From a phage: DNA of 64,000 bases. The position numbers were made by a program, and so were the translations under genes. Positions 16,196 to 43,746 of the stretch are shown in pieces (position 1 is the first letter of the stretch; each line of letters opens with the position of its first letter). A model generated the notes under the pieces. The model saw only the letters and a list, made by a program, of their open reading frames with translations, made no database searches and was not told the DNA's origin. The stretch is from the sequence record PZ445432.1. One strand, 5' to 3'.

Positions 16196-16791
16196 AACAA
16201 TACTCCTGTGTTGGAAATGAAATAAGTTTTCTTTAGGACTATTCAGAAAGAATAGAACAACTGTTACTGTCAATTTCTCAACAATTAATCGCAAATACTG
16301 AAGTGGGGTGGCAACTTCCACTTTCACGCTGCGCTGCTGCCTCATTATACCGCACAAATCCTTGAGGATGGCCGCTAAGCCGGATTTGCTCACCTAATGC
16401 TTCATATACTAGCTCATACTAGATGCAATATAACTTACAGAATCACGTCTCGGTAGTTTTTCACTCCTCCCATCTCACTTCACAACCACCTCATACTAGG
16501 TTGCTTCGAGGCCTTACCAGGGTTCCTATGGGACGCAGATCGCTAAGTATTCTATTAACTATTTGTTTAAAAACTAACACGTAACAGTTAAAACAACCCT
16601 TAATGGGGCAGCCTAACTGTTCCGTATCGCGGATTGTAAACAAGAAAAAACTTTTTCGTAAAGCTCTAGCAACGTACCTTATGCAGCTATTTACGGGTCA
16701 TCGATTCCTCTCGCCGTAAATCCATTGTCAGCTTCACTAAGAAAAATTAGCAAAATCAATTTTTACTAATGTCTCTCAATTCAATATAAAT

Positions 16792-16820
16792 ATTATAGCA
16801 AGATTTTGAGCATCATGCAA
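16792..16820 (-). promoter_or_regulatory. sigma70-like promoter
   Basis: Reverse complement gives TTGCAT, 17 nt, TATAAT; would give a leader of roughly 400-600 nt before the large ATPase gene. Confidence 0.45.
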
Positions 16821-16896
16821 GTAAATTTTTAAGGAGAATGCTATCAGTGTCTTTGAGCACAGTGAAAACCGAGCCAAAATGACTCGGTTATGTGGA

Positions 16897-17091
16897 TTAG
16901 ACACTTAAAATACTTCTAATCTCTTCTATATACTTATCTACTTTTTTAGCATCTATTTTACTTAGTTTTCCTATATCAAAATCAGGATCAGTCAAATATC
17001 TTGCCATAAATTTTACTTGTTTAGCTGAAAGTTGACCCTTATTCCACTTTTTAATTTTACCATAACATACCCAATATTCTTTATTCATCAT
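16897..17091 (-). CDS. hypothetical protein
   Basis: 64-aa basic ORF. Confidence 0.4.
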   Translation of the reverse strand: MMNKEYWVCYGKIKKWNKGQLSAKQVKFMARYLTDPDFDIGKLSKIDAKKVDKYIEEIRSILSV

Positions 17092-17473
17092 TTAGTCCCG
17101 AAACATAAATCCCAACACGGTTTAATTGTTCTTTGGCTTCTTTGAGAATATCTGGAGTGTACTCCCAAATATCATCTTCCACCTGTAAAAGATGGGGCGA
17201 ACAACCGTCATCGGGCACACGACATATGGCCAAACCACGTGGATGGAACAAAGAGAAATTTAGTGCAACAATTAAACCCATAGCAGACAACTCATTCCAA
17301 TCCAATTCCCATTCCCTAGCGTAGCCTGATAGGAAAACACCAATACAGGGATCGTCTATTTGCTGCTCCGGAAAAGTAAAGGAGGCTTGTCTTACCCCCA
17401 ACCAACGTTGTAGCAGCTTCTCCGCACGCTTCACCAAACTAGGATCAATCTGACGCCAATATACTTGTTCCAT
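17081..17473 (-). CDS. hypothetical protein, paralog A of a tandem pair
   Basis: Shares PCIG ... W.ELD.MGL..ALN..LF.P with the adjacent 17483-17911 ORF. Confidence 0.5.
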   Translation of the reverse strand: MEQVYWRQIDPSLVKRAEKLLQRWLGVRQASFTFPEQQIDDPCIGVFLSGYAREWELDWNELSAMGLIVALNFSLFHPRGLAICRVPDDGCSPHLLQVEDDIWEYTPDILKEAKEQLNRVGIYVSGLNDE

Positions 17474-17482
17474 TGTGCCACC

Positions 17483-17911
17483 TTAGGCAGTTAAACCAGG
17501 AATTTGATAACCAAAACGACGAAGTTTCTGGATACCATCATTTACTTCTTCCGGTGAGTAAGACCAACCGTAATGTTCATCAACTTGAAAGCCAGGAGAT
17601 TCACTGGTTTTATAGTTAACAACAATACGGTGTTTATTGGGCATAAATAGCTTATAGTTTAATGCAAAAACCAACCCCATTTCATCCAGCTCTTTCCAGC
17701 CGACAATCTCTTCCAGACCATCCTCTACCTGCACAACTAGACCAATACACGGGGCCTCATCAATATCATCTTTAAAAGCAAAGGAGATTTCATTATTTTC
17801 ACACCATATTTTCAAGGAGTTAATAGTCTCATTATACAGGCTAGCTGGGAGAGTACGCCAGAAGTTAACCAAAATTGGATTAGCTTCTTTAGAGAATACA
17901 TTATTGAACAT
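17483..17911 (-). CDS. hypothetical protein, paralog B of a tandem pair
   Basis: Same conserved blocks as the 17081-17473 ORF. Confidence 0.5.
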   Translation of the reverse strand: MFNNVFSKEANPILVNFWRTLPASLYNETINSLKIWCENNEISFAFKDDIDEAPCIGLVVQVEDGLEEIVGWKELDEMGLVFALNYKLFMPNKHRIVVNYKTSESPGFQVDEHYGWSYSPEEVNDGIQKLRRFGYQIPGLTA

Positions 17912-17913
17912 AT

Positions 17914-18420
17914 TTACACCTTAAGTTGTTGTAGGGCTTTACACATTTCAAGATCTGGACTAAATTCTAGCATATAGCTAACAGCCATTAAATCTTGAAG
18001 GTTTATTCCAGTTCTACCGTTGACTATAACCGTTGGATACTGGTACATCATAGCACCAGCGTCATCCAGCACACACCAATGTTTGAGCTTATGCTTTTCA
18101 ACGAAGCGAAGAACAGAATTACCCCTAGATAGCCCACCACCAGTAAAATCCGTTGTACCAAGAAAACGATCAATAAGATCTAATCTGGTCATAATCTGAA
18201 CGTTCTCCATCTCATTCCTGACAGAGAACCATGAAGATACCCCAACAATCATTATTGGAGAAGGACGAATAAAGTCCTGAAAAGCCTTGAGAAGCGGCTT
18301 AAAAACCCAGTCACTTCCAAAGAAAATCTTTTCATCATCAGGTGCATGATGGTGGGAGATGCTCGAATTAAGCACCCCATCGATGTCTAGAAAAATAATT
18401 GGAGTATTACTTATTTCCAT
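17914..18420 (-). CDS. HAD-superfamily phosphatase-like protein
   Basis: N-terminal FLDIDGVL (HAD motif I, DxDx[TV]) and a later LDDAG segment. Confidence 0.55.
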   Translation of the reverse strand: MEISNTPIIFLDIDGVLNSSISHHHAPDDEKIFFGSDWVFKPLLKAFQDFIRPSPIMIVGVSSWFSVRNEMENVQIMTRLDLIDRFLGTTDFTGGGLSRGNSVLRFVEKHKLKHWCVLDDAGAMMYQYPTVIVNGRTGINLQDLMAVSYMLEFSPDLEMCKALQQLKV

Positions 18421-18589
18421 TTCTGTTCCTTTCTAAGAACGTATCATACTCAACCGTATCAACATATATGACACCATAGTCATCGGATTTATAGTCCATT
18501 TCCCATAGCTCACATCGATAGCACCAACTACCATCCGCCCATACAAATATATCATCGGGATGTGTATACACAGATTTAACTATGGACAT
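18407..18589 (-). CDS. hypothetical protein
   Basis: 60-aa ORF overlapping both neighbours. Confidence 0.35.
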   Translation of the reverse strand: MSIVKSVYTHPDDIFVWADGSWCYRCELWEMDYKSDDYGVIYVDTVEYDTFLERNRNGNK

Positions 18590-19404
18590 ATTTGTTTTCC
18601 CGGCATATAAGGTCTACCCTCTAGATGAGCTTCTACACGAGCAATAAAACCAGGATCACTGAAAGCATCTACTGCACCTTTACTCCAGTAAGGAATACCA
18701 CGATCTTCCAGTTGGTACATATCACTACGAGTCATACCTTGATAGCCTGGTTTCGACGCTAGGGCACTATCATAGTAGTTAACTACCATAAGTTTCGCAG
18801 CAGTCCGATTAAGAACAGGGAATAGTTCCCAGTAGAAGTTAATTACTTGGTTAGAGCAACCAACTACAACGATCATATCTTGACTGGTAATACCATCAAA
18901 AATATTGTACATTTCTGCGTACGCTGGAGCATGCTCACCAAAAAAGATTACATTAGGTTTAACCCATTTATAATCATCTGGGTCAATAGAGTTATACCCA
19001 ACATCAATAACCCGTTTATTACTACTATTGTAGCTATCAGCTACAACAACCTCTTTTAAATATCCGTGAATGTGCAGAATATCACTATGTGGAACGCCAG
19101 CACGCTCAATAAGGTCATCAACGTTGGTAGTCAAGTTTACTACTTGACCCGGATATTTCTTATACCATTCACCAATACGCAAGTGTGCAAGATTAGGTTC
19201 AACAGTTTCTAACTCTTCACGCCGCTTGTTGTAAAACATATGGGTTTTATGATAAAAGTTACCACGAAAGGCGTGAATATTACATACTTCTTCTAGATCA
19301 TAATCATCCCACAGTGCTTTACCACTAGCAGTATCGGTACGAAAAGCTCGTACACCACTTTCAACGCTCAAACCTGCACCGCTAATAATAATTAATCTAC
19401 GCAC
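18580..19404 (-). CDS. Sir2 (sirtuin)-family NAD-dependent enzyme
   Basis: SGAGLSVESGVRAFR, TTNVDDL, HG and PNVIFFGE sirtuin motifs; no zinc-ribbon CxxC pairs seen. Confidence 0.7.
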   Translation of the reverse strand: MRRLIIISGAGLSVESGVRAFRTDTASGKALWDDYDLEEVCNIHAFRGNFYHKTHMFYNKRREELETVEPNLAHLRIGEWYKKYPGQVVNLTTNVDDLIERAGVPHSDILHIHGYLKEVVVADSYNSSNKRVIDVGYNSIDPDDYKWVKPNVIFFGEHAPAYAEMYNIFDGITSQDMIVVVGCSNQVINFYWELFPVLNRTAAKLMVVNYYDSALASKPGYQGMTRSDMYQLEDRGIPYWSKGAVDAFSDPGFIARVEAHLEGRPYMPGKQICP

Positions 19405-19598
19405 TATACGATTCCTCGCTTAAATCCTTCGATAATATTTCGGAGTAAAATTGCTTCCTCCGGGCGTACCTTCTCTTGCTTAATAAGCATATCCAATCCA
19501 GCAATACAACTAGTTACACCAGCATTATAACCAGAGTTCCATTGCTCAATGAGCATGTTTTCTAGATTACTTTTTAGATTCTGATTCAAGAAGTCCAT
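19404..19598 (-). CDS. hypothetical protein
   Basis: 64-aa ORF. Confidence 0.4.
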   Translation of the reverse strand: MDFLNQNLKSNLENMLIEQWNSGYNAGVTSCIAGLDMLIKQEKVRPEEAILLRNIIEGFKRGIV

Positions 19599-19791
19599 AA
19601 AGTTTCTCCTCTAGTCCCATAATACGATTTTCATAAGAAGCACGCAACTTTTCAATTGCCAGCGCACGCACTGTAACCTCATTAGAATTAATAGCTAACT
19701 GGGCCAGATCTTCTGTTTCCATACGTCCGTTGTAAATTAAGCGATATTTAAGGTGTTTCACATTCTTGGTCATTATTAAACTCCACTGCAA
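19567..19791 (-). CDS. hypothetical protein
   Basis: 74-aa ORF. Confidence 0.4.
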   Translation of the reverse strand: MQWSLIMTKNVKHLKYRLIYNGRMETEDLAQLAINSNEVTVRALAIEKLRASYENRIMGLEEKLYGLLESESKK

Positions 19792-20146
19792 CTGTTTCTA
19801 GGTCTTCGTCAAAAAAACTAGAGTATGTATCTTTAAGATACTGTTTAATACTCCAAGTAATATCTTCGTATCCATCTGGACTACGTTGGTATACTTTTAA
19901 CACTCTATTATACACAAATTCAAGATTACATTTTACTTCATCTCTGTCTTCATCAAACAAGCAATATGGGTTATATGGCGATACATCTAGATTTGTTTCC
20001 ACCCAATCACCAATAACGGTGGGGTATCCAGCACCATCTATATGAGAGTAATCACCTGTGGCAGCAAAGACAGCCTCAGCAATATCATCCACGCCCAGAT
20101 GGAAATCACCACATGTAGATTCAACTATATAGGGCTTTAATTCCAT
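19748..20146 (-). CDS. hypothetical protein
   Basis: 132-aa acidic ORF downstream of the promoter at 20175-20203. Confidence 0.45.
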   Translation of the reverse strand: MELKPYIVESTCGDFHLGVDDIAEAVFAATGDYSHIDGAGYPTVIGDWVETNLDVSPYNPYCLFDEDRDEVKCNLEFVYNRVLKVYQRSPDGYEDITWSIKQYLKDTYSSFFDEDLETVAVEFNNDQECETP

Positions 20147-20174
20147 ATCTTTCTCCTCTCAAATTTATAAATCT

Positions 20175-20203
20175 ATTATACATAAATTTTTAGCTGAAAG
20201 CAA
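20175..20203 (-). promoter_or_regulatory. sigma70-like promoter
   Basis: Reverse complement gives TTGCTT, 17 nt, TATAAT. Confidence 0.5.
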
Positions 20204-20245: not shown

Positions 20246-22072
20246 TTACTTAAGATTTAAGTGTTTTACTCTACCAAGAACTTCTTTTTGTTTCCCAGAA
20301 TTGAAAGGCCTACTGCTAGGGGATCCCAAGTACCCGCAAACCCTACGTGTAACCTCTATTTCTTCAGACCCACAACTCGGACATACAAACCCACGTTCAG
20401 AGGCAACAGATTCACCCATATACCCACAGTTGAAGCACTCATCAATTGGTATATTAACACCAATATAATGGCTACATTCTAGCCCCTTATCCACCACATA
20501 CTCAAGAGCTTTGTGGAACTTTTTCATTTGAGGTAGTTCCACAAATGATATATTACCACCATTAGCTATTTTGGTAAAATGAGCCTCGTACTCAAATTTA
20601 GTATCTGGGGCTACCTTCTCTCTTACGTCCAAATGGTGACTATTAGTGAGATAGCCTTTATCTGTTAGCCAAGAATACTCTGGGAATCTACGTTCTAGTA
20701 ATTTATTAAAACGATTACATAGAGACTCACTAGGAGTAGCGTATAAGCTAAATCCAAGATTAGTCTCATTAGCTTTAACTTCGCAACGATTTTTTAGGTG
20801 AGTAAGAACTTCTTCTGTAAATTCAATACAATCCCTATGGGTTTGTGGTAGACCAAACATTATTTGGCACATCTCATAGACCCCAATGTATCCAAGAGAT
20901 ACAGAAGATCTACCCTCAAAAATAGGCCATACATACTCTTCCCCATCTAAACGCACACCAAAACCACCGTGCATATAAAGAATAGGGGCTTGTTTAGCCT
21001 TAACTTTCTTCAGTCTGTTTAAGAAGAAGTCATGCGCTTCAAAAGCCTCATCCACATATTTGTCTAGAATATCCCAGAAATCTTCAAAAACCCCATCTGC
21101 CTCAGCAGCAACCATAGGTAGATTAATAGACACTACACCTAAATTATTGCGCCCTGCAATTTCTCCGGAGGGGATAGCAGATAAAAAGCTACGACAACCC
21201 ATAGGTGCTTTAAAATCACCAGTAACAGCTACAACTTTCTCATAGCTTAAATAGTCCGGGTACATACGGGTAGCAGAACACTCAAGTGCTAGCTGTTTTA
21301 TATCGTAGTTAGGATCGCCTGGATTTTTATTTAACCCTTCTTTAACTGAGAATACTAGTTTAGGGAAGATAGGGGTTGACTCAGCAGCACCTAAACCTTT
21401 AATACGGTTTTGGAGGATGGCTTTCTGAATCATCCTTTCCTCCCACTCCTGTCCTAGCCCAAAGCCAAGCGTAACAAAAGGAGTCTGTCCATTAGAGTTA
21501 AATAATGAATTAGTTTCATACTCTAGGGCTTGGAATGCGTCATAACACTCTTTTTCAGTGAGTTCAGTAGCATATACAGCAGCTTTCCTTTCATCCTTGA
21601 GCCAACGTAGACCACGACCCAGGTGCTTATCATAAGACTTTCTGACATAAGGGGCTAAAACCTCATCGATACGATCAATAGAAGTGCCACCATACTGAGC
21701 ACCAGATACTTGGGCAATAATCTGAGCAGTGATTGCACATGCAGTAGTTATGGATTTAGGAGTTTCAATATTTGCATTACCAATTTTAGTACCATTCTTC
21801 AGCATGCCACCAAGGTCTACTAAACAACAGTTAGTGTATCCCTGTGCCCTGTAATCCATATCATGGATGTGTATTTTACCTAGATTATGGGAGTCTAATA
21901 GATGTTTAGGTAATTCTTGTGCTACTAAATACTTGTTGATTTCTCCAGCTAATAAGTCTCTTTGGGTATGGAACATCTCACTAGGCTTATTAGCATTATT
22001 ATGTTGTAAGTCCTTATCAGCAGTTAGAGTGAGCAGGCCTTTGCAATTCTCAATTAATTCATTCTCTGTCAT
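20246..22072 (-). CDS. nrdD: anaerobic ribonucleoside-triphosphate reductase
   Basis: 608-aa ORF with a C-terminal glycyl-radical motif (RVCGYLG) and C-terminal CxxC zinc site. Confidence 0.85.
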   Translation of the reverse strand: MTENELIENCKGLLTLTADKDLQHNNANKPSEMFHTQRDLLAGEINKYLVAQELPKHLLDSHNLGKIHIHDMDYRAQGYTNCCLVDLGGMLKNGTKIGNANIETPKSITTACAITAQIIAQVSGAQYGGTSIDRIDEVLAPYVRKSYDKHLGRGLRWLKDERKAAVYATELTEKECYDAFQALEYETNSLFNSNGQTPFVTLGFGLGQEWEERMIQKAILQNRIKGLGAAESTPIFPKLVFSVKEGLNKNPGDPNYDIKQLALECSATRMYPDYLSYEKVVAVTGDFKAPMGCRSFLSAIPSGEIAGRNNLGVVSINLPMVAAEADGVFEDFWDILDKYVDEAFEAHDFFLNRLKKVKAKQAPILYMHGGFGVRLDGEEYVWPIFEGRSSVSLGYIGVYEMCQIMFGLPQTHRDCIEFTEEVLTHLKNRCEVKANETNLGFSLYATPSESLCNRFNKLLERRFPEYSWLTDKGYLTNSHHLDVREKVAPDTKFEYEAHFTKIANGGNISFVELPQMKKFHKALEYVVDKGLECSHYIGVNIPIDECFNCGYMGESVASERGFVCPSCGSEEIEVTRRVCGYLGSPSSRPFNSGKQKEVLGRVKHLNLK

Positions 22073-35769: not shown

Positions 35770-36559
35770 ATAAATTAGAGAACAGCGGGCCGATTACGCT
35801 GAGTGCAGAATCCAAACCGGAGTGCATTGAATAGAGTCGGTGGGTTAGTTGTAAAACTAGTACACAGTGGGCGGCAATCCCGGTTAGTGGCTAGAACGTG
35901 TAAAATGGGGCGTCTGAAACCTCTCCCCTAAACTCTTCTCTAGTTTATAAATAGTGGGGTGTGGAAATCACTTATGTAGTAACACTGCCGATCTAGTATA
36001 AACGGTATTATCAAGCCGTAACTGGTGGAAGATGTAGGTTCGAATCCTACGATCGGTAAGAACTGGATAACTGGTGCTTTTAACGTAAAAGCTTCCGAGG
36101 TTAGTTGCGCACTGCCTAAACCACGCGGTAGTTGGTTCCAGACTAACCAACCAGTCTGCTGAATAGTTTTATTACGATTTAACTATGTCCAGGCTAAAGA
36201 AGAACTTTAGAAGGTATTCTAGGTGGTGAAGTTTTTCCTCCATATCGGAGTAGTTTTTCAAGCTACCAACAAAGTGGGAAATGCTGACATGAGAGATGTC
36301 ACTAATGGTGCACAATAGCACAGGTAATTCGCGATAACTCCTGTTGAGTAGCAGCAAAAGGCGGGAAGTCATGACCCCAAGCCTAACCGAGTCCTCAATA
36401 TACCGCAGGACATAACCACTAAGTCACCCTGACTTAAACTGGAAAATAATAGACGTTACTGTATTTTGTCTTGAAATACTTAATGAGTGAGACTTATGAC
36501 TCTCCCGGTATCGTCTGTATTTTTAAGAGTTTTTACGAGAGTTCTTAAAAATACTTAAA
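35770..36559 (+). ncRNA. ORF-free transcribed region, possible stable small RNAs
   Basis: About 800 nt with no plus-strand ORF, downstream of a consensus promoter; contains several hairpins and tRNA-like fragments. Confidence 0.3.
35987..36058 (+). tRNA. tRNA-like element (possible pseudo-tRNA)
   Basis: Acceptor stem GCCGATC/GATCGGT and T-arm GTAGG-TTCGAAT-CCTAC are intact, but no canonical D or anticodon stem could be folded by hand. Confidence 0.3.
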
Positions 36560-36634
36560 CGGGGTGTAGTCTAAGGGAGAGGCAGGAGTCTTCTAAATTC
36601 CTTTATGCAGGTTCGAATCCTGTCACCTCGGCCA
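36560..36634 (+). tRNA. tRNA-Arg (anticodon TCT)
   Basis: Acceptor CGGGGTG/CACCTCG, anticodon stem GGAGT/ATTCC with loop CTTCTAA, T-arm GCAGG-TTCGAAT-CCTGT, encoded CCA. Confidence 0.6.
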
Positions 36635-36668
36635 ATTTTATTAACTGTAACTAAAACAAAGGAAATAT

Positions 36669-37616
36669 ATGTTTAATACTAAAAATATGAAAGAACTGAC
36701 TTCTGAGCAAAAAGTAATTCGCACTATTAAACGTTGGGGTATTGGTTCTGTAGTTGGTTTAGCAGGTTTAATCCTAGCTTTTAATTCATATACTATTGTT
36801 TCTGATGGTACAGTTAAAACCCAAACATTTCTGGGTAAAGTAGATCCTAACCCAGTATTACCTGGTTTCCATCTTGTAAACCCATTTGCATCTTTCGATA
36901 CTTTTAGTACAAAAGATATTGCTGTAAAATTAGATAAACTTCAGGTTCCTAGCCAGGATAAGTTTAAATCCACTGTTGACCTGACTGTTATGTTGCAGTT
37001 TGATGGTTCTAAGGCACCGATCAACCGTATTAATGCAGGTACTCAGGATCAGGCGTTAGACAAATATGTTACTGAAAAATTACTGTCTACCATCCGTGAG
37101 TTTGGTAAGTCTGTACCTAAAGCACAAGATTTGTTTGATGCTAAAATTCAAGCACAATTACAAACTGCAATTCAACAGGAAGTTGAAGAGTATGCACGCC
37201 CTTATGGTTACACAGTTAAGCAAGTGTTCCTTCAGGATATTACATTGCCACCGGTAATTATGGAACAGGTACAGAATACCAAAGTTCGTGAAGAACAAGT
37301 TAATGCTGCGAAAGCTGAATTGGCTCGTGTTGAACAAGAAGCACAGCAGAAGGTTAAACAAGCAGAAGCAGATCGTGAAGCTCGTAACAACCAAGCTATT
37401 GCAAACGAACGTGATGCAGATGCTAAACTGTATGCAGCTAAGAAAGAAGCCGAAGCTAACGCCGCTCTGCAACGTACTATTACTCCTGAGATGATTCGCT
37501 GGAAACAACTAGAAGTTGAAATGACTCGTGCTCAGAAGTATCAAGGTGGTGTGCCTCAGACTGTAGTAGGTACTGGTTACGATGGTCAAATGATCATGGA
37601 TATGCGTAACAAGTAA
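36669..37616 (+). CDS. SPFH/band-7 (prohibitin/HflC-like) membrane protein
   Basis: N-terminal transmembrane segment, then a long Ala/Glu/Gln-rich coiled coil typical of SPFH proteins. Confidence 0.5.
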   Translation: MFNTKNMKELTSEQKVIRTIKRWGIGSVVGLAGLILAFNSYTIVSDGTVKTQTFLGKVDPNPVLPGFHLVNPFASFDTFSTKDIAVKLDKLQVPSQDKFKSTVDLTVMLQFDGSKAPINRINAGTQDQALDKYVTEKLLSTIREFGKSVPKAQDLFDAKIQAQLQTAIQQEVEEYARPYGYTVKQVFLQDITLPPVIMEQVQNTKVREEQVNAAKAELARVEQEAQQKVKQAEADREARNNQAIANERDADAKLYAAKKEAEANAALQRTITPEMIRWKQLEVEMTRAQKYQGGVPQTVVGTGYDGQMIMDMRNK

Positions 37617-37639
37617 TAGTTACACGTAATCTTCGAAGT

Positions 37640-37680
37640 AAGCCCTGTGTTCCCTGGAGAGCGCAGGGCTTTTCTGTTTT
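37640..37680 (+). terminator. rho-independent terminator
   Basis: AGCCCTG ... CAGGGCT hairpin followed by TTTTCTGTTTT. Confidence 0.55.
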
Positions 37681-37842
37681 AAGGTAGAGGATAAGTGTGT
37701 CTCTTTGGTCACTCAGCTATGACAAATACTTTACACTATATCACATTGAAAATCAAGTGGGGATAACAATTTTGGGGTCTATCCACTTACCTGCTACCCT
37801 TAAGCATCCTGTTATTTTCCTCTAAAAAGTTAAAAAATTCAA

Positions 37843-37871
37843 TTGCTTGAATGCTAAATTCTCTGTATAAT
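37843..37871 (+). promoter_or_regulatory. sigma70-like promoter
   Basis: TTGCTT, 17 nt, TATAAT. Confidence 0.5.
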
Positions 37872-37903
37872 ATACTTATAAATTTGAGAGAGAGGAATCT
37901 AGT

Positions 37904-38422
37904 ATGACTGTTGATGAACTAACAGAACATCTCTTATCTAGAGGGTTTGATACAGATAAGTATCATTGCTGGTTAAGTCCGGAAGGATGGCTAACAGTCC
38001 CGTTGTATGACTTCTCTGGGATGTTGAGAGGCTATCAGACTTATAATCCTTCTGCTCCAAAAGGTCATGGTAAGTGCCCCTTTGAAGCTAAATATTTTAC
38101 TTATTCAACTACACAGTGTGTATGGGGATTAGAAACTCTCAATGGAGATGAAAAAGTAGTATTGATTGCTGAATCTGTATTTAAGGCAGTTGCGTTACAT
38201 AACGCTGGTTATCCAGCCCTGGCAATGTTGGGTTCTTCCCCCGGAAAAGCATTGTTAAAGCAATTGAAATTATTACCTTTTAAATTGGTAGCTGTCGGAG
38301 ATAATGATCCTGCGGGTGAAAAATTTGCTAGAAAATTAAACGGCTTTGTTTCTCCTGTAGATGTAGATGAGATGTCTACCGAAAACTTGAAAAATTTTCT
38401 TGCTATGAAGCTAAATTTCTAA
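37904..38422 (+). CDS. Toprim-like domain protein
   Basis: VVLIAESVFKAVALHNAGYPALAMLG ... VAVGDNDPAGEKFARKL resembles a TOPRIM fold. Confidence 0.45.
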   Translation: MTVDELTEHLLSRGFDTDKYHCWLSPEGWLTVPLYDFSGMLRGYQTYNPSAPKGHGKCPFEAKYFTYSTTQCVWGLETLNGDEKVVLIAESVFKAVALHNAGYPALAMLGSSPGKALLKQLKLLPFKLVAVGDNDPAGEKFARKLNGFVSPVDVDEMSTENLKNFLAMKLNF

Positions 38423-38442
38423 TATAATATATTTATAAATTC

Positions 38443-38531
38443 GGAAGAATAGCATAACGGTATTGCAGCAGATTGCTAATCTGTCGGTTTGAAATATAGC
38501 CTTGTGGGTTCGATTCCCACTTCTTCCGCCA
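38443..38531 (+). tRNA. tRNA-Ser (anticodon GCT), type II
   Basis: Acceptor GGAAGAA/TTCTTCC, 3-bp D stem, anticodon loop TTGCTAA, long variable arm, T-arm GTGGG-TTCGATT-CCCAC, encoded CCA. Confidence 0.7.
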
Positions 38532-38537
38532 AATTCT

Positions 38538-38615
38538 GGTTCTCAAGCTCATATGGTATGAGCACCCAGCTCATAACTGGAAGGTACGTAGGTTCGAATC
38601 CTCGGGGAGCCACCA
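38538..38615 (+). tRNA. tRNA-Met/Ile2 (anticodon CAT)
   Basis: Acceptor GGTTCTC/GGGAGCC with G-U pairs, D stem GCTC/GAGC, anticodon loop CTCATAA, TTCGAAT T-loop, encoded CCA; T stem has mismatches. Confidence 0.5.
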
Positions 38616-38634
38616 AATTAAATAAGGACAACTA

Positions 38635-38823
38635 ATGGAATTATTCATAGTTTCTGTTAAATTTGCACAAGATAGAGAACGTTCGGATGAGTTTAAACAA
38701 GGGTACAGACTAGTAAAGGCTACATCTGAACTCCATGCTATGGACAAAGTAGTAGACTATATGTATAATGTAGAAGATGTTTACTACGTCAATGCTTTAG
38801 AAGCCTCAAAAGTAATTGACTAA
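38635..38823 (+). CDS. hypothetical protein
   Basis: 62-aa ORF with RBS AAGGA. Confidence 0.45.
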   Translation: MELFIVSVKFAQDRERSDEFKQGYRLVKATSELHAMDKVVDYMYNVEDVYYVNALEASKVID

Positions 38824-38832
38824 GGAGACTAT

Positions 38833-39018
38833 ATGTCTAAGTTTCAAGAACTCAAGCAAGAGCTAGAAGAATGTGCCTGCCCTGAGTGTAGAGGAATTGG
38901 TGAAAGTTCTGATGCAGAAGCAGTGGATACTTTTTGCAATATCTGGGTTTGCCCAAATTGCAAGGGTACAGGTATTAATCCTAACTGTGGTATTTCTCTA
39001 GATATTGAAAGAGGATAA
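38833..39018 (+). CDS. hypothetical zinc-ribbon protein
   Basis: CPECRG ... CPNCKG double CxxC; RBS AAGGAG. Confidence 0.45.
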   Translation: MSKFQELKQELEECACPECRGIGESSDAEAVDTFCNIWVCPNCKGTGINPNCGISLDIERG

Positions 39019-39120
39019 TACCTGTGAAACTAAAAGATTATTATATTGGTTGGTTTGTGGGACTAGTAGTAGGATTTTCACTAGGCTATAATATGTATCA
39101 ACTAATAAACTGATTACATG

Positions 39121-39193
39121 GGGGTGTAATCGAATTGGCATAGGTACTGTACTTAAAATTCAGGTTTTGTGGGTTCGAATCCCAGCGAGGCGT
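39121..39193 (+). tRNA. tRNA-like element (anticodon-like loop TAA; acceptor stem does not pair)
   Basis: Good T-arm (GTGGG-TTCGAAT-CCCAG) and anticodon-like hairpin CTGTA-CTTAAAA-TTCAG, but no 5'/3' acceptor pairing found; a -10 TATAAT lies upstream. Confidence 0.25.
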
Positions 39194-39241
39194 AACTGCC
39201 TGGTGTGATAGAGGCATCATTCCACTAATATTGGAAAACTA

Positions 39242-39472
39242 ATGAAACGAAAATTAAAAAAATCTTATATAATTAAGATAAATAAGCTAAGAAGTAGGGC
39301 AAAAGGATGGCCACTTCGGATATTAATTGCGGATAACCATATTAGATACCATGCGGAACAACGTCATTATAAACAGTGGGAGTCATACTGCCGCTCAAAA
39401 GCAGGTCGTTTAGATGGATCTTATGAGTTTCTATTTGGTAAGAAGCCTACTAGAGTAGCTTTAGGTAATTAA
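39242..39472 (+). CDS. hypothetical basic protein
   Basis: 76-aa ORF. Confidence 0.4.
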   Translation: MKRKLKKSYIIKINKLRSRAKGWPLRILIADNHIRYHAEQRHYKQWESYCRSKAGRLDGSYEFLFGKKPTRVALGN

Positions 39473-39477
39473 TACTT

Positions 39478-39568
39478 GGAAGAGCAAATCGAATTGGCGA
39501 CGAAAACCGCTTGGAAAGTGGCTGACCGGTAAAACGGCTTGAGAGTTCAAATCTCTCCTCTTCCGCCA
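39478..39568 (+). tRNA. tRNA-Ser (anticodon GGA), type II
   Basis: Acceptor GGAAGAG/CTCTTCC, anticodon loop TTGGAAA, long variable arm, T-arm GAGAG-TTCAAAT-CTCTC, encoded CCA. Confidence 0.6.
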
Positions 39569-39580
39569 AACAATTTATAT

Positions 39581-39675
39581 GGTAGGTCAATCCAACGGCT
39601 GGCGCTGGACTCCGACTTGAAATCGGTTGATCGTAGTGATACGGTGTAAGGGTTCGATCCCCTTACCTACCTCCA
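39581..39675 (+). tRNA. tRNA-Ser (anticodon TGA), type II
   Basis: Perfect acceptor GGTAGGT/ACCTACC, anticodon loop CTTGAAA, variable-arm hairpin CGTA-GTGA-TACG, T-arm AAGGG-TTCGATC-CCCTT, encoded CCA; D-loop unusually long. Confidence 0.5.
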
Positions 39676-39812
39676 AATCTTGAAGTATGCCGGAATCGGT
39701 AGACGGGGCTGCCTAAAAGGTTTATAGGGAACATCCACTCCCTGCAACATACCTCATAAAGCGGCTGAGATAAATGGTCTATCTCGTGAAGGTTCAAGTC
39801 CTTCTGCTTCTT
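39676..39812 (+). other. tRNA-like or structured RNA region, unresolved
   Basis: Contains a T-arm-like hairpin GAAGG-TTCAAGT-CCTTC and D-loop-like AATCGGTAGA, but no acceptor pairing could be found. Confidence 0.2.
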
Positions 39813-39927
39813 GATACATCTATGGCTCAAAGTGTAACGGTGCTATTTGATGCTCTTGGTAAGACTTCCCCGACATGCGTTCGGGAGTAAGCTGCTAAGA
39901 CTAGAGTAGAAGAGTTTCTGAGAGCCG

Positions 39928-40046
39928 CCACAATTGAAAATTCGTACTCGTCTTGAGCTGCGTGCAATAGGAGATAACTTGATTAGTATTCTAGAACATG
40001 CTAATTGAGGATGGTTTCGCTAACCCTGCGAGTTTTCAATTGTGGC
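39928..40046 (+). repeat. 13-bp perfect inverted repeat bracketing a 93-nt spacer
   Basis: CCACAATTGAAAA at 39928-39940 and TTTTCAATTGTGG at 40034-40046; the right arm overlaps the tRNA-His 5' end. Confidence 0.6.
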
Positions 40047-40117
40047 TATATCATAATTGGTTAATGATCCTGATTGTGAATCAGGCCTATGTGGATTCGA
40101 ATTCCACTAGCCACCCC
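40042..40117 (+). tRNA. tRNA-His (anticodon GTG)
   Basis: Acceptor GTGGCTA/TAGCCAC, D stem TCAT/ATGA, anticodon stem CCTGA/TCAGG with loop TTGTGAA, T-arm GTGGA-TTCGAAT-TCCAC, encoded CCA. Confidence 0.7.
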
Positions 40118-40143
40118 AAATTAACTTAAATAGGAAATAAAAT

Positions 40144-40341
40144 ATGGCTGATTTCTGCAAACAATGCTCCATTGATATGTGGGGCAGAGATACTGGTGAT
40201 CTTTCTGGTTTGATTACAGAAGCCGAAGTCAAAGAAGGTTATGGTGCAGTTGTGGTTTGCGAAGGATGCGGAGTTATTCGAGTAGATCATGAAGGCAAAC
40301 GTTTAGAAGAACCGGAAAATTTAGGAGAAACAAATGAGTAA
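40144..40341 (+). CDS. hypothetical zinc-ribbon protein
   Basis: CKQC ... CEGCG motif; RBS AGGAAA. Confidence 0.45.
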   Translation: MADFCKQCSIDMWGRDTGDLSGLITEAEVKEGYGAVVVCEGCGVIRVDHEGKRLEEPENLGETNE

Positions 40342-40570
40342 TGCTTTAATTAGTGAAATTATGTTAACACGTCTTGCAGAACTGCAAACTCTTCGAGATG
40401 AATCTCAGAATAACTTATCCTACCATAAACAGATGGTAGATACTCTTACTACTCGTATTGAAACTTACGAGCGTGATATTGCAGCATTACAAGCTCTTTT
40501 CTCCGTATCAGCACCAGATACGTTAGAACAGCCTGCTGTATCTCAGCCAGTAGAGACAGCATCTAGTTAA
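40334..40570 (+). CDS. hypothetical protein
   Basis: 78-aa ORF with RBS AGGAGA. Confidence 0.45.
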   Translation: MSNALISEIMLTRLAELQTLRDESQNNLSYHKQMVDTLTTRIETYERDIAALQALFSVSAPDTLEQPAVSQPVETASS

Positions 40571-40579
40571 TAGCATTTT

Positions 40580-40655
40580 TGGAGTGTAGATCAATTGGCA
40601 GATCGTCGGCCTCTGACTCCGAAGGTTCCTGGTTCGATCCCAGGCACTCCAGCCA
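40580..40655 (+). tRNA. tRNA-Gln (anticodon CTG)
   Basis: Acceptor TGGAGTG/CACTCCA, D stem GATC/GATC, anticodon loop CTCTGAC, T-arm CCTGG-TTCGATC-CCAGG, encoded CCA. Confidence 0.6.
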
Positions 40656-40661
40656 AATAAT

Positions 40662-40737
40662 TGGAGAGTAGTGTAACGGTTAGCACAACGGCCTTTGACT
40701 CCGTTAATGGTAGGTTCGATTCCTCCTTCTCCAGCCA
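40662..40737 (+). tRNA. tRNA-Gln (anticodon TTG)
   Basis: Acceptor TGGAGAG/TTCTCCA, anticodon loop CTTTGAC, T-arm GTAGG-TTCGATT-CCTCC, encoded CCA. Confidence 0.6.
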
Positions 40738-40744
40738 AAATAAT

Positions 40745-40819
40745 GCGTGATTAGTTCAGTGGCTAGAACAACTGGCTTCCAACCAGTAGACACGAGTTCG
40801 ACTCTCGTATCCCGCACCA
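40745..40819 (+). tRNA. tRNA-Gly (anticodon TCC)
   Basis: Acceptor GCGTGAT/ATCCCGC (one mismatch), D stem GTTC/GAAC, anticodon stem ACTGG/CCAGT with loop CTTCCAA, T-arm ACGAG-TTCGACT-CTCGT, encoded CCA. Confidence 0.65.
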
Positions 40820-40833
40820 AATAAGGAATCTCT

Positions 40834-41085
40834 ATGCACGTTTTTGAGTTTCGTAATAAAAGTACCAATAAACGAGTTATTGTTATTGGGGAAACATATC
40901 GAGCATATGAACAAACTGACGGCTCTGTTATCTTGAATGATGAGAAAGGGGGTTTTAGCTTTTATCCAGAAGAACCTTATGAAGAGTTTCGAAAACAATT
41001 TAACCTAGACTGGAGAAAGCATTTAAACACTGTTGCTTCATCTGTAGTACTGCCAACTACCAGTACTGTACTATCTAATGGCTGA
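40834..41085 (+). CDS. hypothetical protein
   Basis: 83-aa ORF with RBS AAGGAA. Confidence 0.45.
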   Translation: MHVFEFRNKSTNKRVIVIGETYRAYEQTDGSVILNDEKGGFSFYPEEPYEEFRKQFNLDWRKHLNTVASSVVLPTTSTVLSNG

Positions 41086-41242
41086 TAACCTAAAAGTCAA
41101 GATCGACAAACAAAAGAAACGTGTAGAAGTAGAGATTGGTGAAGAACGTGTAGCCTTCACCTTTGAATTTCTACAACAAATGGCAATGACAGTTATGACT
41201 GATAAGTCTCCTGTTATTGAAAAAGAAATCCCGTTGAAATAA
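41078..41242 (+). CDS. hypothetical small protein (54 aa)
   Basis: ATG overlapping the upstream stop; below the track's size cut-off. Confidence 0.3.
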   Translation: MADNLKVKIDKQKKRVEVEIGEERVAFTFEFLQQMAMTVMTDKSPVIEKEIPLK

Positions 41243-41250
41243 CGGGTTCT

Positions 41251-41337
41251 GCTGGGTTGGCAGAATGGTTGAATGCACCTGATTTGTAATCAGGAGGAGT
41301 AATCCCGTTGCAGGTTCGAATCCTGTGCCCAGCACCA
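41251..41337 (+). tRNA. type II (long variable arm) tRNA, anticodon reads TGT (Thr?)
   Basis: Acceptor GCTGGGT/GCCCAGC, 3-bp D stem, perfect anticodon stem CCTGA/TCAGG with loop TTTGTAA, variable-arm hairpin GGA-GTAA-TCC, TTCGAAT T-loop, encoded CCA. Confidence 0.5.
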
Positions 41338-41351
41338 ATTTAAGGACTATT

Positions 41352-41519
41352 ATGTTTAAACTGTTAGTAGTTATCTGGTATAGTCAATCAAATAGAGCGA
41401 ATACCTCCCACGTTATAGACTTTACTACTAAAAATGAAGCTGAAAAAGCATATGCTAATTTAATAGAACGCAATAAAGAATCTCGTAGTATAGTTTATGA
41501 AGTGACTAAACTTTATTAA
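41352..41519 (+). CDS. hypothetical protein
   Basis: ATG with RBS AAGGAC just after the tRNA; the track ORF begins earlier, inside the tRNA. Confidence 0.4.
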   Translation: MFKLLVVIWYSQSNRANTSHVIDFTTKNEAEKAYANLIERNKESRSIVYEVTKLY

Positions 41520-41527
41520 AAATTCAT

Positions 41528-41556
41528 TTGCTTTCCCTCTTATTTATTGTTATAAT
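41528..41556 (+). promoter_or_regulatory. sigma70-like promoter
   Basis: TTGCTT, 17 nt, TATAAT. Confidence 0.5.
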
Positions 41557-41586
41557 ATTTATATAAATTAATGAGAGGGAAACCAA

Positions 41587-41877
41587 ATGAAACGTTATCT
41601 TTCTGTTATGTTCCAAACCGGCGGCCAAAGATACACCTATGAATTTCCACCTTCCTGGAAAATCAGGGAAGGTGATCAAATAGTTGTGTTGACACCGCGT
41701 GAAGAATATAAAGTAGTGACGGTTAAACAAGTATTTCCAAAAGATCATGAACCAGCTATAGGCATCCGATATAAGATGATTCATGGCGTGGTTCGTCAAG
41801 TACCACGAACTGAGGTAGAAGTAGATAATACTGGAGAAACTAAATTCCATTATACTTCTTACTTAGACAGTGTGTGA
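41587..41877 (+). CDS. hypothetical protein
   Basis: 96-aa ORF directly after a promoter-leader cassette. Confidence 0.5.
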   Translation: MKRYLSVMFQTGGQRYTYEFPPSWKIREGDQIVVLTPREEYKVVTVKQVFPKDHEPAIGIRYKMIHGVVRQVPRTEVEVDNTGETKFHYTSYLDSV

Positions 41878-41892
41878 TGTAAATATTTTAAT

Positions 41893-41969
41893 GCTTCGGT
41901 AGCTTAGCGATCTAAAGCACTCGGCTGATAACCGAGAGATCAGGGGTTTAAATCCCTCCCGGAGTACCA
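41893..41969 (+). tRNA. tRNA-Ile (anticodon GAT)
   Basis: Acceptor GCTTCGG/CCGGAGT, D stem GCTT/AAGC, anticodon stem CTCGG/CCGAG with loop CTGATAA, T-loop TTTAAAT, encoded CCA. Confidence 0.65.
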
Positions 41970-42065
41970 AATCTAGGAATTAAGACTATGCGTCCAGGAA
42001 AGTTTAAAAAAGCTAGTTGGTCTAAAGAGTACAAAGAATACTTACTTAGCCTAGTAAAACGTAAT

Positions 42066-42141
42066 AGTTAGTTGGCAGAGTGGTTATGCGCCTCCTTCAT
42101 ACGGAGCGACTACAGTGGTTCAAATCCACTACTAACTACCA
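42066..42141 (+). tRNA. tRNA-Met/Ile2 (anticodon CAT)
   Basis: Acceptor AGTTAGT/ACTAACT, anticodon loop TTCATAC, T-arm AGTGG-TTCAAAT-CCACT, encoded CCA. Confidence 0.6.
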
Positions 42142-42154
42142 AACAGGAGATCTA

Positions 42155-42523
42155 ATGAAAGCGTATCAAAATCTTAAATCTGGCGTAATTAATATTGTTC
42201 ATAATAATCAGATTATTCAACTGTACTCTAAAGATGGTGAACTTAAACAAAAGGTTCTAGTTGAAGATCTAGATGGTATCACACCTCATTTTGACCCAGA
42301 ATCCTTTCGTGAAGTCAAAGTGGAAGTCGCCCCTCAAATTGAAGGTGGTCAACACCTAAATGTCAATGTGTTAAGTCGTGATCAGCTTTTGGATGCGCAG
42401 AAACATCCTGAAAAATACCCTCAATTAACTATCCGTGTTTCAGGGTACGCTGTGCGTTTTAACGCACTGACGCGTGAACAGCAGAACGACGTTATTAGTC
42501 GTACATTTACTCAGGCGATGTAA
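42155..42523 (+). CDS. grcA: autonomous glycyl-radical cofactor (GrcA/YfiD-like)
   Basis: C-terminus [12 protein letters not shown] ... [37 protein letters not shown] closely matches the GrcA/pyruvate formate-lyase glycyl-radical domain; RBS AGGAGA. Confidence 0.8.
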
Positions 42524-42604
42524 TGGGGCTTGGATACGGTTTCTACGAACTACGTAAGGTAGTCGAGCAAACTCCATTTATCTCCCAAGTTTTAGGAGAA
42601 ATGT

Positions 42605-42919
42605 GTGGATCGAGCATTAAGACGTCATCACCGGCAACGTGTAAAGAACAACCGCAAGAAGTATTGGACAGTCTTCCCACATGAAGAAAGCCCTAAACGG
42701 TTAGGTATTATCACTACTACTCCTTGTATCTGTTCTTGTTGGATGTGCGGGAACCCTCGCAAACACTTTAAGAATAGTAAAGCAGGGATGAAAACCTCGG
42801 AGATTAGGAAAATGGAAGCAATGATTACGGATATTTCAAATGATGAATTTGATGGCTTCGTAGGATTCGGGGAAGATATTAGCTCGGACTGTTTCGAAGA
42901 TGAGCTCCCAGGTCTATGA
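42605..42919 (+). CDS. hypothetical protein
   Basis: GTG start 6 nt after AGGAG; basic N-terminus and a CxCxC segment. Confidence 0.4.
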   Translation: MDRALRRHHRQRVKNNRKKYWTVFPHEESPKRLGIITTTPCICSCWMCGNPRKHFKNSKAGMKTSEIRKMEAMITDISNDEFDGFVGFGEDISSDCFEDELPGL

Positions 42920-42928
42920 TTAATAACA

Positions 42929-42966
42929 AACCCCAGCTATTGAATAAGTAGTCTGGGGTTTTTCTG
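42929..42966 (+). terminator. rho-independent terminator
   Basis: ACCCCAG ... CTGGGGT hairpin followed by TTTTTCTG. Confidence 0.55.
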
Positions 42967-43040
42967 TATACAGGTAGATAATTTATGTATAATAAAATTC
43001 ATCCACATTAGGTTAATTCAAAAGACTTAATGGAGGTAAT

Positions 43041-43388
43041 ATGAGCCGTACTTATCGTAGACAAACTGGTGATCAGTGGTGGAAGTCTAAAGCTAATTAC
43101 ACCCAGGGATATACTTTCCTCAAAGCAAGTGACTACTACATTCGTGTTACTTATGCTAAATCCTGGGATGAGGTAGAACAGGAAATGGAAGAAGCAACCA
43201 TTCGTAATGAGAAAAAGGATGGTTATAGCTGGAATTCTGTTAGTAAGAATGTTAAGTGGCATTCTAATAAAATGGTTCGTCAAGGAAATCGTCAAGAACT
43301 CCACCGCGTGATGAAAGACCCAGAAAATTACGACTATAATCGCGATCATGACATGCGTAAGCGTGGGTTACGGTGGTGCTATGACTAA
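43041..43388 (+). CDS. hypothetical protein
   Basis: 115-aa ORF with RBS GGAGG. Confidence 0.45.
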   Translation: MSRTYRRQTGDQWWKSKANYTQGYTFLKASDYYIRVTYAKSWDEVEQEMEEATIRNEKKDGYSWNSVSKNVKWHSNKMVRQGNRQELHRVMKDPENYDYNRDHDMRKRGLRWCYD

Positions 43389-43405
43389 ATTCTGAAATAA
43401 TTCAT

Positions 43406-43434
43406 TTGCTAAACCTCTCTTTTCTTGCTATAAT
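43406..43434 (+). promoter_or_regulatory. sigma70-like promoter
   Basis: TTGCTA, 17 nt, TATAAT. Confidence 0.5.
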
Positions 43435-43464
43435 ATATTTATAAATTGATGAGAGAGGTTTGAA

Positions 43465-43746
43465 ATGAAAACTCGTCTAGACTGTGCTGTTCATGTTCTT
43501 GAACATGATGTTGTGGGAACCTGTATGTCTTATCACGAAGCAGGTCGTTTAATTAAAGAACGTGTGGCAGATGTATGTGGGTTGAAGATTACTGCTGAGG
43601 AAGCTGATGATCTTCTAGACCAGGCACTGGGGAAAACAGAAATATTCCTCTGCGATTCCTGCTCCTGGTGGTGTGAAGCTCACGAACATTCCTTCAACGA
43701 TTATGATGTATGCCGTGACTGTAATGAGGGGGACCATGATGAATAA
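43465..43746 (+). CDS. hypothetical Cys-rich protein
   Basis: 93-aa ORF with CDSCSWWCEAH and CRDCNEGDH segments. Confidence 0.45.
   Translation: MKTRLDCAVHVLEHDVVGTCMSYHEAGRLIKERVADVCGLKITAEEADDLLDQALGKTEIFLCDSCSWWCEAHEHSFNDYDVCRDCNEGDHDE

Follow-up and report, generated by a model that had tools for sequence, protein, structure and literature searches.

What does a phage use a sirtuin for, and do the genes beside it serve the same function? The question is raised by positions 16,897 to 19,404 of a 64,000-nucleotide stretch of phage DNA (sequence record PZ445432.1). This whole stretch is called the window below, and coordinates are those of the window. The minus strand encodes here a Sir2-like protein (sirtuin), a phosphatase of the HAD type, and a tandem pair of DUF7415 paralogs. 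Positions 16700–19700 were 100% identical to Escherichia phage HildyBeyeler (Bas33, MZ501074.1), a Tequintavirus (T5-like phage) of the BASEL collection whose host is E. coli K-12. The same stretch is kept in 448 phage records, nearly all of them T5-like phages of Escherichia and Salmonella. The locus is this phage's version of T5.100–T5.107, an early operon of accessory genes. We tentatively suggest that the sirtuin and the phosphatase act together on damaged RNA ends.

The locus, the missing zinc site, the association of Sir2 with HAD, and the RNA-repair prediction have all been published already, and no new object is described here. In the T5 record AY543070, T5.102 is already called a putative Sir2-like protein. 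For the Sir2 gene in T5, Skliros et al. 2016 credit the T5 genome paper as they cite it (Wang et al. 2005; PMC5107563). They also described homologous enzymes without the zinc site in Vibrio phages and KVP40, counted T5 among the phages that carry the gene, and suggested that the Vibrio-phage enzyme deacetylates proteins (activation of Acs) (PMC5107563). Iyer, Burroughs, Anantharaman and Aravind (2022, Viruses 14:1977; PMC9503650) set apart a viral clade of sirtuins, in which they distinguished three types of gene neighbourhood. They described the sirtuin with a 'Swiss-army-knife' (SAK) HAD in T5-like phages, type 3 being 'Escherichia phage SP15', and predicted a KptA-like, NAD-dependent removal of RNA 2'-phosphates (PMC9503650). 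The locus studied here is a member of the SP15 type 3 neighbourhood: it encodes a viral-clade sirtuin and a SAK-like HAD, split only by an open reading frame (ORF) of 60 amino acids (aa), and all three genes overlap. SP15 proteins are among the closest homologues found. Unlike the other neighbourhood types of PMC9503650, those of T5-like phages are without the ligase and kinase.

The Sirtuin

The 274-aa ORF at 18580..19404 (bas33_0055; T5.102 orthologue) matched the Pfam family SIR2 (PF02146) with E = 1.5e-24 and 87.3 bits, against a cut-off of 24. Its best sequence homologue of solved structure was E. coli CobB (1s5p, E = 1.3e-17); archaeal Sir2-Af1/Af2, SIRT5, and Sir2Tm came next. The AlphaFold2 model (predicted local distance difference test, pLDDT, 87) matched the CobB fold (1s5p) with E = 9e-18 and a template modelling (TM) score of 0.70 when normalised to the query and 0.84 when normalised to the target. 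The 50 best PDB fold matches listed were all CobB, Sir2-Af, Sir2Tm, SIRT5, or SIRT2, and a defence-effector Sir2 was not seen among them. The comparison with the PADLOC defence models gave no family at E ≤ 0.01. The protein is single-domain according to Pfam and has no sensor domain.

The motifs were read from 27 aligned phage homologues, which are 48–85% identical. The residues G9, A10, G11, S13, S16, and G17 (GAGxSxxSG), F21 and R22, N94 and D96, H113 and G114, and F154, F155, and E157 (FFGE) were invariant, and so was V152. The canonical TQN(I/V)D motif reads TTNVDD in all 27 sequences, which means that Gln is replaced by Thr across the whole clade. Y58 and R61 align with FYNARR of CobB, which holds the Tyr-x-x-Arg pair for acyl carboxylates (CobB Y92/R95), and FY[ND]xRR was found in every homologue. 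None of the 27 contains a CxxC anywhere, and only 0–1 Cys lies between HG and FFGE, so the zinc-binding Cys4 site is missing; the β-strands of the zinc module are still predicted in the model. The initial annotation had described this ORF as Sir2-like, with the full sirtuin motif set and no zinc-ribbon cysteines. That description was borne out, with the nuance of the TTNVDD motif, and the catalytic Asn and His on which it hinged are present (N94 and H113) and invariant in the clade.

The score stayed below both NCBIfam cut-offs for CobB equivalogs (101.3 bits vs. 243 for NF001753 and 90.7 vs. 320 for NF040867). The strongest homologues were phage proteins or were encoded on contigs of phage-genome size. 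Judged from sequence and model, the protein is a phage-specific, zinc-less offshoot of the class III (CobB/SIRT5-type) sirtuins and not a relative of the NADase effectors, because its sequence and fold neighbours are deacylases of this kind, PADLOC gave no match, Y58/R61 are present, the scores are sub-equivalog, and the homologues are phage-only. F21 and the FGE tunnel would favour transfer to a substrate over hydrolysis, as expected from sirtuin enzymology.

Sirtuins were found in 1007 records of lytic phages, including T5-like, V5-like, KVP40-like, and jumbo phages. These phage sirtuins are uncharacterised, and papers call their presence enigmatic. The Tequintavirus Sir2 is nearer to that of Vequintavirinae and Mydovirus (57–63% identity) than to that of Epseptimavirus (~51%) or Sugarlandvirus (~48%). 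The HAD proteins of Tequintavirus and Epseptimavirus share ~90% identity, their Sir2 proteins only ~51%. There is also a long Sir2 allele with an insertion of ~26 residues after residue 50. From these sequence comparisons, the divergence of Sir2 between T5-like genera looks like allele replacement by recombination. Public records contain mislabels; the Sir2 of Klebsiella phage vB_Kpn_3, for example, is called 'tail assembly protein'.

The HAD Phosphatase

The 168-aa ORF at 17914..18420 (minus strand; bas33_0053; T5.105 orthologue) matched Pfam HAD_SAK_2 (PF18143) with E = 1.2e-20 and 74.7 bits (cut-off 27.5) over profile positions 1–138 of 139. HAD motifs I, II, and IV are intact (D12-I-D14-G-V, S62-S63-W, and D119-D120 in VLDD) and invariant in comparison with the homologues of Proteus phage PM2 and Aeromonas phage Aes012. 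R99, within the invariant TGGGxSRG, is a candidate for the motif III residue. No sequence relative was found in the PDB. The close spacing of its motifs hints at an enzyme without a cap, an architecture that would suit macromolecular substrates better than mononucleotides. The HAD_SAK_2 family was defined on RNA-repair fusion proteins, and the phosphatase is predicted from its family match to be of the 'Swiss-army-knife' RNA-repair type rather than of a nucleotide or ADP-ribose (ADPR) phosphatase family; the role of the family is itself a contextual prediction.

The naming of this gene is confused in public resources. The protein family phrog_18062 carries the label 'Sir2 (NAD-dependent deacetylase)' but corresponds to the C-terminal half of HAD (E = 1.5e-55); in many RefSeq records of T5-like phages, it is the HAD gene that is called Sir2.

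The DUF7415 Paralogs

The HAD gene is followed on the minus strand by DUF7415_A at 17483..17911 (142 aa; bas33_0052; T5.106 orthologue), a diverged paralog with two DUF7415 units, and by DUF7415_B at 17081..17473 (130 aa; bas33_0051; 95% identical to T5.107; Pfam 1.2e-31). The two are 31% identical over 124 aa (E = 5e-18). Both belong to Pfam DUF7415 (PF24187), scoring 116.3 and 109.1 bits where the cut-off is 27, with two matched stretches each. The tandem pair had been put forward as a candidate new domain: the family is already in Pfam, and what stands of the proposal is that it has no known function or fold relative. Two β-α-β-β modules and a helix at the C-terminus make up the model (pLDDT 86.5), and the fold search against the PDB found no relative. 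An exhaustive profile search of 1.84 billion representative sequences gave only 60 members at E ≤ 1e-3. In an alignment with family representatives, the C-terminal unit of DUF7415_B keeps the consensus WNELSxxGL…HPxGLA…G.S…W.Y. Rare fusions join DUF7415 to thymidylate kinase or to an ASCH/DUF3850 domain. The DUF7415 proteins have an isoelectric point (pI) of 4.6 and a net charge of -9. This acidity, calculated from sequence, makes direct contact with nucleic acid less likely, and a protein or a small ligand is the more probable binding partner.

The neighbourhoods of DUF7415 in other phages were collected by tblastn on annotated phages. A single-unit DUF7415 lies between nrdD and nrdG in two T4-like genera, Jiaodavirus (Klebsiella phage KP179) and Gualtarvirus (Providencia phage PSTRCR_127). 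A link to anaerobic ribonucleotide reductase is possible, as the T5-like operon also lies just downstream of nrdD. In Aeromonas phage Aeh1, a single-unit DUF7415 gene comes directly after rnlA, and a homologue of the HAD protein (E = 7e-23) is encoded 1.8 kb upstream, so that the two flank RNA ligase 1. In RB43 and Matisse, a single-unit DUF7415 gene follows a Nudix gene. The common thread of these contexts would be nucleotide and RNA-end metabolism. The literature search found no experiments on DUF7415 or on T5.102–T5.107 in the main texts of papers.

Several records (GenBank/ACLAME 70) label DUF7415 genes as 'exonuclease', and this label found no nuclease support from Pfam, the PDB, or the fold search. 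At two loci, a 317-aa protein with an N-terminal DUF7415 unit adjoins the integrase of a small integrative element. One element carries AlpA beside the 317-aa gene, and the other carries a 929-aa Toprim primase. We infer that the integrase-adjacent gene resembles the accessory-cargo position of a P4-like satellite.

Genomic Contexts of the Sirtuin Clade

Orthologues of the Sir2 clade (57–63% identical) occur in RNA-end-processing clusters of other phage families. In Vequintavirus JeffSchatz, the genes of an RNA ligase, a cREC protein (PF20274, 1.3e-14), and a 58%-identical Sir2 abut and are co-directional, with a polynucleotide kinase (PNK) and a phosphoesterase encoded divergently alongside them. 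In Mydovirus, a 63%-identical Sir2 lies between a P-loop kinase and an ATP-dependent ligase, and cREC-like and MazG-like genes are nearby. These two contexts support a role of Sir2 in RNA-end or cyclic-phosphate chemistry. Sir2 occurs without HAD or DUF7415 in Vequintavirinae and Vibrio phages, and DUF7415 was not found beside Sir2 in Vibrio phage phi-Grn1 or Vequintavirus.

Proposed NAD-Dependent Healing of RNA Ends

Tpt1/KptA enzymes remove 2'-phosphates from RNA in an NAD+-dependent manner, via an ADP-ribosylated intermediate and a 1'',2''-cyclic product. The reading that we tentatively prefer, and hold with limited confidence, is that Sir2 and HAD heal damaged RNA ends using NAD. The damaged ends would probably be those of tRNA cut by host nucleases. 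The sirtuin would remove the RNA 2'-phosphate with NAD+, the phosphate oxygen attacking C1'' of NAD+. The ribose 2''-OH, activated by His113, would then free ADP-ribose-1'',2''-cyclic phosphate, which would amount to Tpt1/KptA chemistry on a sirtuin scaffold. HAD may remove the terminal 3'-phosphate or dephosphorylate the ADPR-phosphate by-product. Sealing would be left to host enzymes, the phage having no detectable RNA ligase or polynucleotide kinase.

The NAD-reactive residues including H113 and the anion-binding Y58/R61 are all kept, while the zinc module that clamps the peptide has lost all its cysteines. The HAD type and the RNA ligase/cREC/PNK contexts point to RNA end-healing rather than to manipulation of NAD pools. 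The arrangement of HAD and DUF7415 around rnlA in Aeh1 is in line with this, and so are the ~25 tRNA genes of the phage. For the neighbourhood type represented by SP15, PMC9503650 had arrived independently at this prediction. The tRNA cluster lies at 35987-47182 on the plus strand; Rfam detected 11 tRNAs at 35987-42138, and the record annotates ~25 at 36560-47182.

Fitness data for the T5 orthologues are given in the supplementary tables of a transcriptome-wide CRISPRi-ART screen of T5 (Adler et al. 2025, PMC11879866). In this screen, T5.102 (Sir2) was Not Fit (p = 0.72), as were T5.103 and T5.104 (orf60-type, the 60-aa ORF; p = 0.40 and 0.48), T5.105 (HAD; p = 0.81), and T5.106 (DUF7415_A; p = 0.17). 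T5.107 (DUF7415_B) was Fit (p = 0.02), one of 17 Fit genes in total; the authors listed it as of unknown function and made no link to the Sir2 operon (PMC11879866). The absence of a detectable fitness effect of Sir2 and HAD knock-down on the laboratory host is what would be expected of a conditional repair function, and the module would be conditional in this sense. The screen also suggests that T5.107 matters independently of Sir2 and HAD.

Several observations weigh against RNA end-healing. Known replication genes also score Not Fit in the T5 screen, which makes Not Fit weak evidence (PMC11879866). The literature search found no experimental report on any phage sirtuin. The residues of the acyl-lysine tunnel and of the FGE β-staple are fully kept, so the sequence fits an ordinary deacylase just as well. 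Apart from orf74 and orf64b, every protein of the operon is acidic, an uncommon trait in RNA-binding enzymes. A tblastn search of the whole HildyBeyeler genome with the JeffSchatz RNA ligase, PNK, and cREC, the Mydovirus kinase and ligase, and RnlA of Aeh1 gave a best E of 0.04, within the limited sensitivity of tblastn, and none of these enzymes is annotated; a tblastn-detectable Nudix or 2H-type partner was likewise not found. Without a detectable ligase or kinase, the pathway could only heal ends and not seal them. The HAD gene is also not a constant companion. A Klebsiella Sugarlandvirus has Sir2, a small ORF, two DUF7415 genes, and no HAD; a metagenomic T5-like contig of 113 kb has Sir2 and one DUF7415 and no HAD; another divergent T5-like contig has Sir2, an 83-aa ORF, and DUF7415, again without HAD. 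HAD_SAK_2 occurs alone in the T4-like phages Proteus PM2 and Aeromonas Aes012.

A third T5-like contig carries NrdD, three small ORFs, and DUF7415 and has no Sir2. The four genes are modular, and there is no obligate set. Within Demerecviridae, DUF7415 (with the small ORF) is a steadier neighbour of Sir2 than HAD, and HAD is the least conserved partner. This constancy of DUF7415 over HAD is not brought out in the text of PMC9503650.

An extended form of the proposal is doubtful. It states that the zinc-less clade is the first nucleic-acid-acting sirtuin (through 2'-phosphate removal or ADP-ribosylation of RNA ends), with HAD as end-phosphatase and the new-fold DUF7415 as a specificity or regulatory partner, DUF7415_B being important for fitness. 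If the prediction were true, these would be the first RNA-acting sirtuins and a second, convergent route to Tpt1/KptA chemistry, with consequences for our understanding of phage survival under tRNA-cleaving defences. As both T5 and a BASEL phage that infects E. coli K-12 carry the locus, the question lends itself to direct testing.

Alternative Explanations

The possibility that the sirtuin is an NAD-dependent protein lysine deacylase is nearly as likely as RNA end-healing. Such an enzyme, a desuccinylase/demalonylase or a CobB-like deacetylase, would strip inhibitory acylation during takeover, with HAD and DUF7415 as unrelated neighbours. Its nearest relatives in sequence and fold (CobB, Sir2-Af1/Af2, Sir2Tm, SIRT5) are what this explanation predicts. 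F21, R22, N94, D96, H113, V152, FFGE, and Y58/R61 are all invariant, and the YxxR pair hints at desuccinylase or demalonylase activity. The cluster is modular, and a deacetylase role is the one proposed for the homologous Vibrio-phage enzyme (PMC5107563). However, the clade lies far under every CobB equivalog cut-off (e.g., 101 vs. 243 bits), the zinc module, which shapes the peptide cleft, is gone, and TQN has become TTN throughout. Deacylation also leaves unexplained why three phage lineages place the clade beside RNA or cyclic-phosphate enzymes (PMC9503650). Somewhat less likely, and overlapping both deacylation and RNA end-healing, is that there is no four-gene system at all. The genes between nrdD and the origin-binding primase gene would then be a mosaic of independently mobile accessory genes, with HAD and DUF7415 in nucleotide metabolism and Sir2 as an unrelated insertion. 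HAD, DUF7415, and Sir2 are each found without the others, and DUF7415 occurs between nrdD and nrdG or fused to thymidylate kinase. The Sir2 allele appears swapped between T5-like genera that keep a nearly unchanged HAD, orf64b is an insertion, and the knock-down phenotypes differ within the operon. A mere mosaic is harder to reconcile with the order Sir2 then DUF7415 being kept across divergent Demerecviridae (Tequintavirus, Epseptimavirus, Sugarlandvirus, and two metagenomic contigs), with the translational overlap of the genes, with the motif spacing of HAD that hints at a cap-less enzyme for macromolecular substrates, and with the renewed co-localisation of HAD and DUF7415 around rnlA in Aeh1.

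The initial annotation had drawn an analogy with the Sir2 NADases of bacterial defence and proposed that Sir2 and the phosphatase manipulate host NAD+/ADP-ribose pools, either as an NADase for host shut-off or by destroying ADPR-derived signals against NAD-based defence. We consider this unlikely. Sirtuins do consume NAD+, HAD could in principle dephosphorylate ADPR-1''-phosphate, and the operon is early, is non-essential on the laboratory host, and encodes many small acidic proteins of the kind typically found in regions for host takeover or anti-defence. The analogy itself did not hold: PADLOC gave no defence Sir2, effector-type Sir2 proteins were not among the 50 best PDB matches listed, the nearest relatives are CobB, Sir2-Af1, and SIRT5, and the sirtuin retains F21 and the FGE/acyl-lysine tunnel, which NADase effectors do not need and which would favour transfer over hydrolysis. 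Manipulation of the pools is weakly supported as well, with a HAD from an RNA-end family rather than an ADPR or nucleotide phosphatase family and with Sir2 orthologues in RNA ligase/cREC/PNK clusters. T5 needs NAD+ for its own DNA ligase, encoded ~7 kb away, so depletion would be self-harming. Some phages of the Sir2 clade also encode NAD salvage genes, which fits an involvement in NAD pools (PMC5107563). Very unlikely, finally, is a toxin-antitoxin-like arrangement in which DUF7415_B regulates the sirtuin or serves as its antidote, so that loss of DUF7415_B unleashes a harmful NAD-consuming activity. It would explain why T5.107 is the sole scorer of the operon while T5.102 is not Fit, and DUF7415 proteins are small, acidic, and placed behind Sir2 throughout Demerecviridae. 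Against it, many phages have DUF7415 with no Sir2 next to it, and the phenotype is a single, thin screen call (p = 0.02).

Comparison with Known Systems

With CobB and SIRT5, the phage Sir2 has the GAGxS, F/R, N/D, HG, and FGE motifs and the Tyr/Arg pair for acidic acyl groups in common. Unlike them, it has no zinc cysteines, a TTNVDD motif, an extra C-terminal helical region, and a phage-only distribution. Tpt1/KptA is the proposed functional analogue, its chemistry paralleling the 1',2'-cyclic intermediate of sirtuins (analogy from PMC9503650). Its fold and ancestry are unrelated to those of the phage Sir2, and the two are alike in possible mechanism without belonging to one family. T4 Pnkp/Rnl1 also has a HAD-fold phosphatase acting on nucleic-acid ends, used to counter host anticodon nucleases, and related phages place the Sir2 clade beside an Rnl1-like ligase and a PNK. 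In contrast to T4 Pnkp, which needs no NAD+, the HAD here is a stand-alone protein of 168 aa without a kinase domain. The defence Sir2 NADases (ThsA, DSR1/2, SIR2-HerA, and SIR2-APAZ/pAgo) share the superfamily and NAD+ binding with the phage sirtuin. The phage gene differs from them in having no PADLOC match, no sensor domain, and deacylases as its nearest structures, and in being encoded by lytic phages and not in a host defence island.

Operon Layout and Neighbouring Features

The operon comprises nine genes on the minus strand from 20146 to 16897, and neighbouring genes overlap or are spaced by 2–9 bp. In the direction of transcription, the order is orf132, orf74, orf64a, Sir2, orf60, HAD, DUF7415_A, DUF7415_B, and orf64b. 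The operon is orthologous to T5.100–T5.107, and AY543070 annotates a matching layout of terminator, promoter, T5.100–T5.107, and terminator. The gene overlaps and the promoter and terminator annotation of T5 agree with the earlier claim that Sir2, HAD, and the tandem paralogs form one minus-strand operon. The cluster is phage-borne, and it is not a housekeeping salvage operon. Added to that description here are the 60-aa ORF between Sir2 and HAD, the three operon genes upstream, and the separate 64-aa ORF at 16897–17091. The ORFs were confirmed at the coordinates given for them earlier. The five ORFs from Sir2 to DUF7415_B are the GenBank CDS bas33_0051–0055, which the record labels 'Sir2-like protein' and hypothetical proteins.

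Upstream of the operon, nrdD (20246-22072, minus strand) is closed by a strong terminator hairpin (20238–20214). Just past it, a putative promoter-like site (TTGCTT-17-TATAAT; 20172..20203, minus strand) was read from the sequence and is followed by a Shine-Dalgarno sequence; the T5 equivalent is the terminator and promoter before T5.100. The phage encodes NrdD, and a tblastn-detectable NrdG activase is absent from the full genome; the phage presumably relies on the NrdD activase of the host. A small GrcA-like gene annotated as 'putative formate acetyltransferase' lies at ~47196-47564 (record 79678-80046).

The first operon gene, orf132 (19748..20146; bas33_0058; T5.100 orthologue), matched phrog_11748 (E = 2e-73). 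Its 132-aa product is acidic to an extreme degree (pI 4.05, net charge -21) and had no Pfam, NCBIfam, or PADLOC match; this composition is typical of DNA-mimic or anti-defence proteins. It is followed by orf74 (19567..19791; bas33_0057, annotated from 19773; T5.101 orthologue; phrog_5236, E = 1.3e-45) and by orf64a (19404..19598; bas33_0056; phrog_5827), whose stop overlaps the Sir2 start by 1 nt.

Between Sir2 and HAD, orf60 (18407..18589; bas33_0054; T5.103/T5.104 type; phrog_5116, 2e-29) encodes a small acidic protein with a pI of 4.35. It follows Sir2 in T5-like phages and Sugarlandvirus, and T5 has two copies of this type (T5.103 and T5.104). The type was found by tblastn in 490 phage records, mostly adjoining Sir2, and occurs alone in Erwinia Kolesnikvirus. 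The idea that orf60 substitutes in trans for the lost zinc ribbon was rejected: it has a single CxxC and is present without a nearby Sir2 in Erwinia phages.

The last gene, orf64b (16897..17091; 64 aa, pI 9.55; phrog_29527, 2e-40), lies between DUF7415_B and the operon terminator on an insertion of ~190 bp. It is not in T5 and has no annotation in the Bas33 record; it is annotated in phage ESCO40. A Rho-independent terminator hairpin (aaccgag…ctcggtttt; 16865..16889, minus strand) closes the operon, and the same hairpin is annotated as a terminator at 58952–58976 of T5. From this terminator, a long untranslated stretch (16196-16865, minus strand) reaches to the annotated start of the primase/origin-binding gene. 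It carries a promoter-like site (TTGCAT-17-TATAAT) and ~100 bp not in T5, which include an inverted repeat (tttacgg…cccgtaaa).

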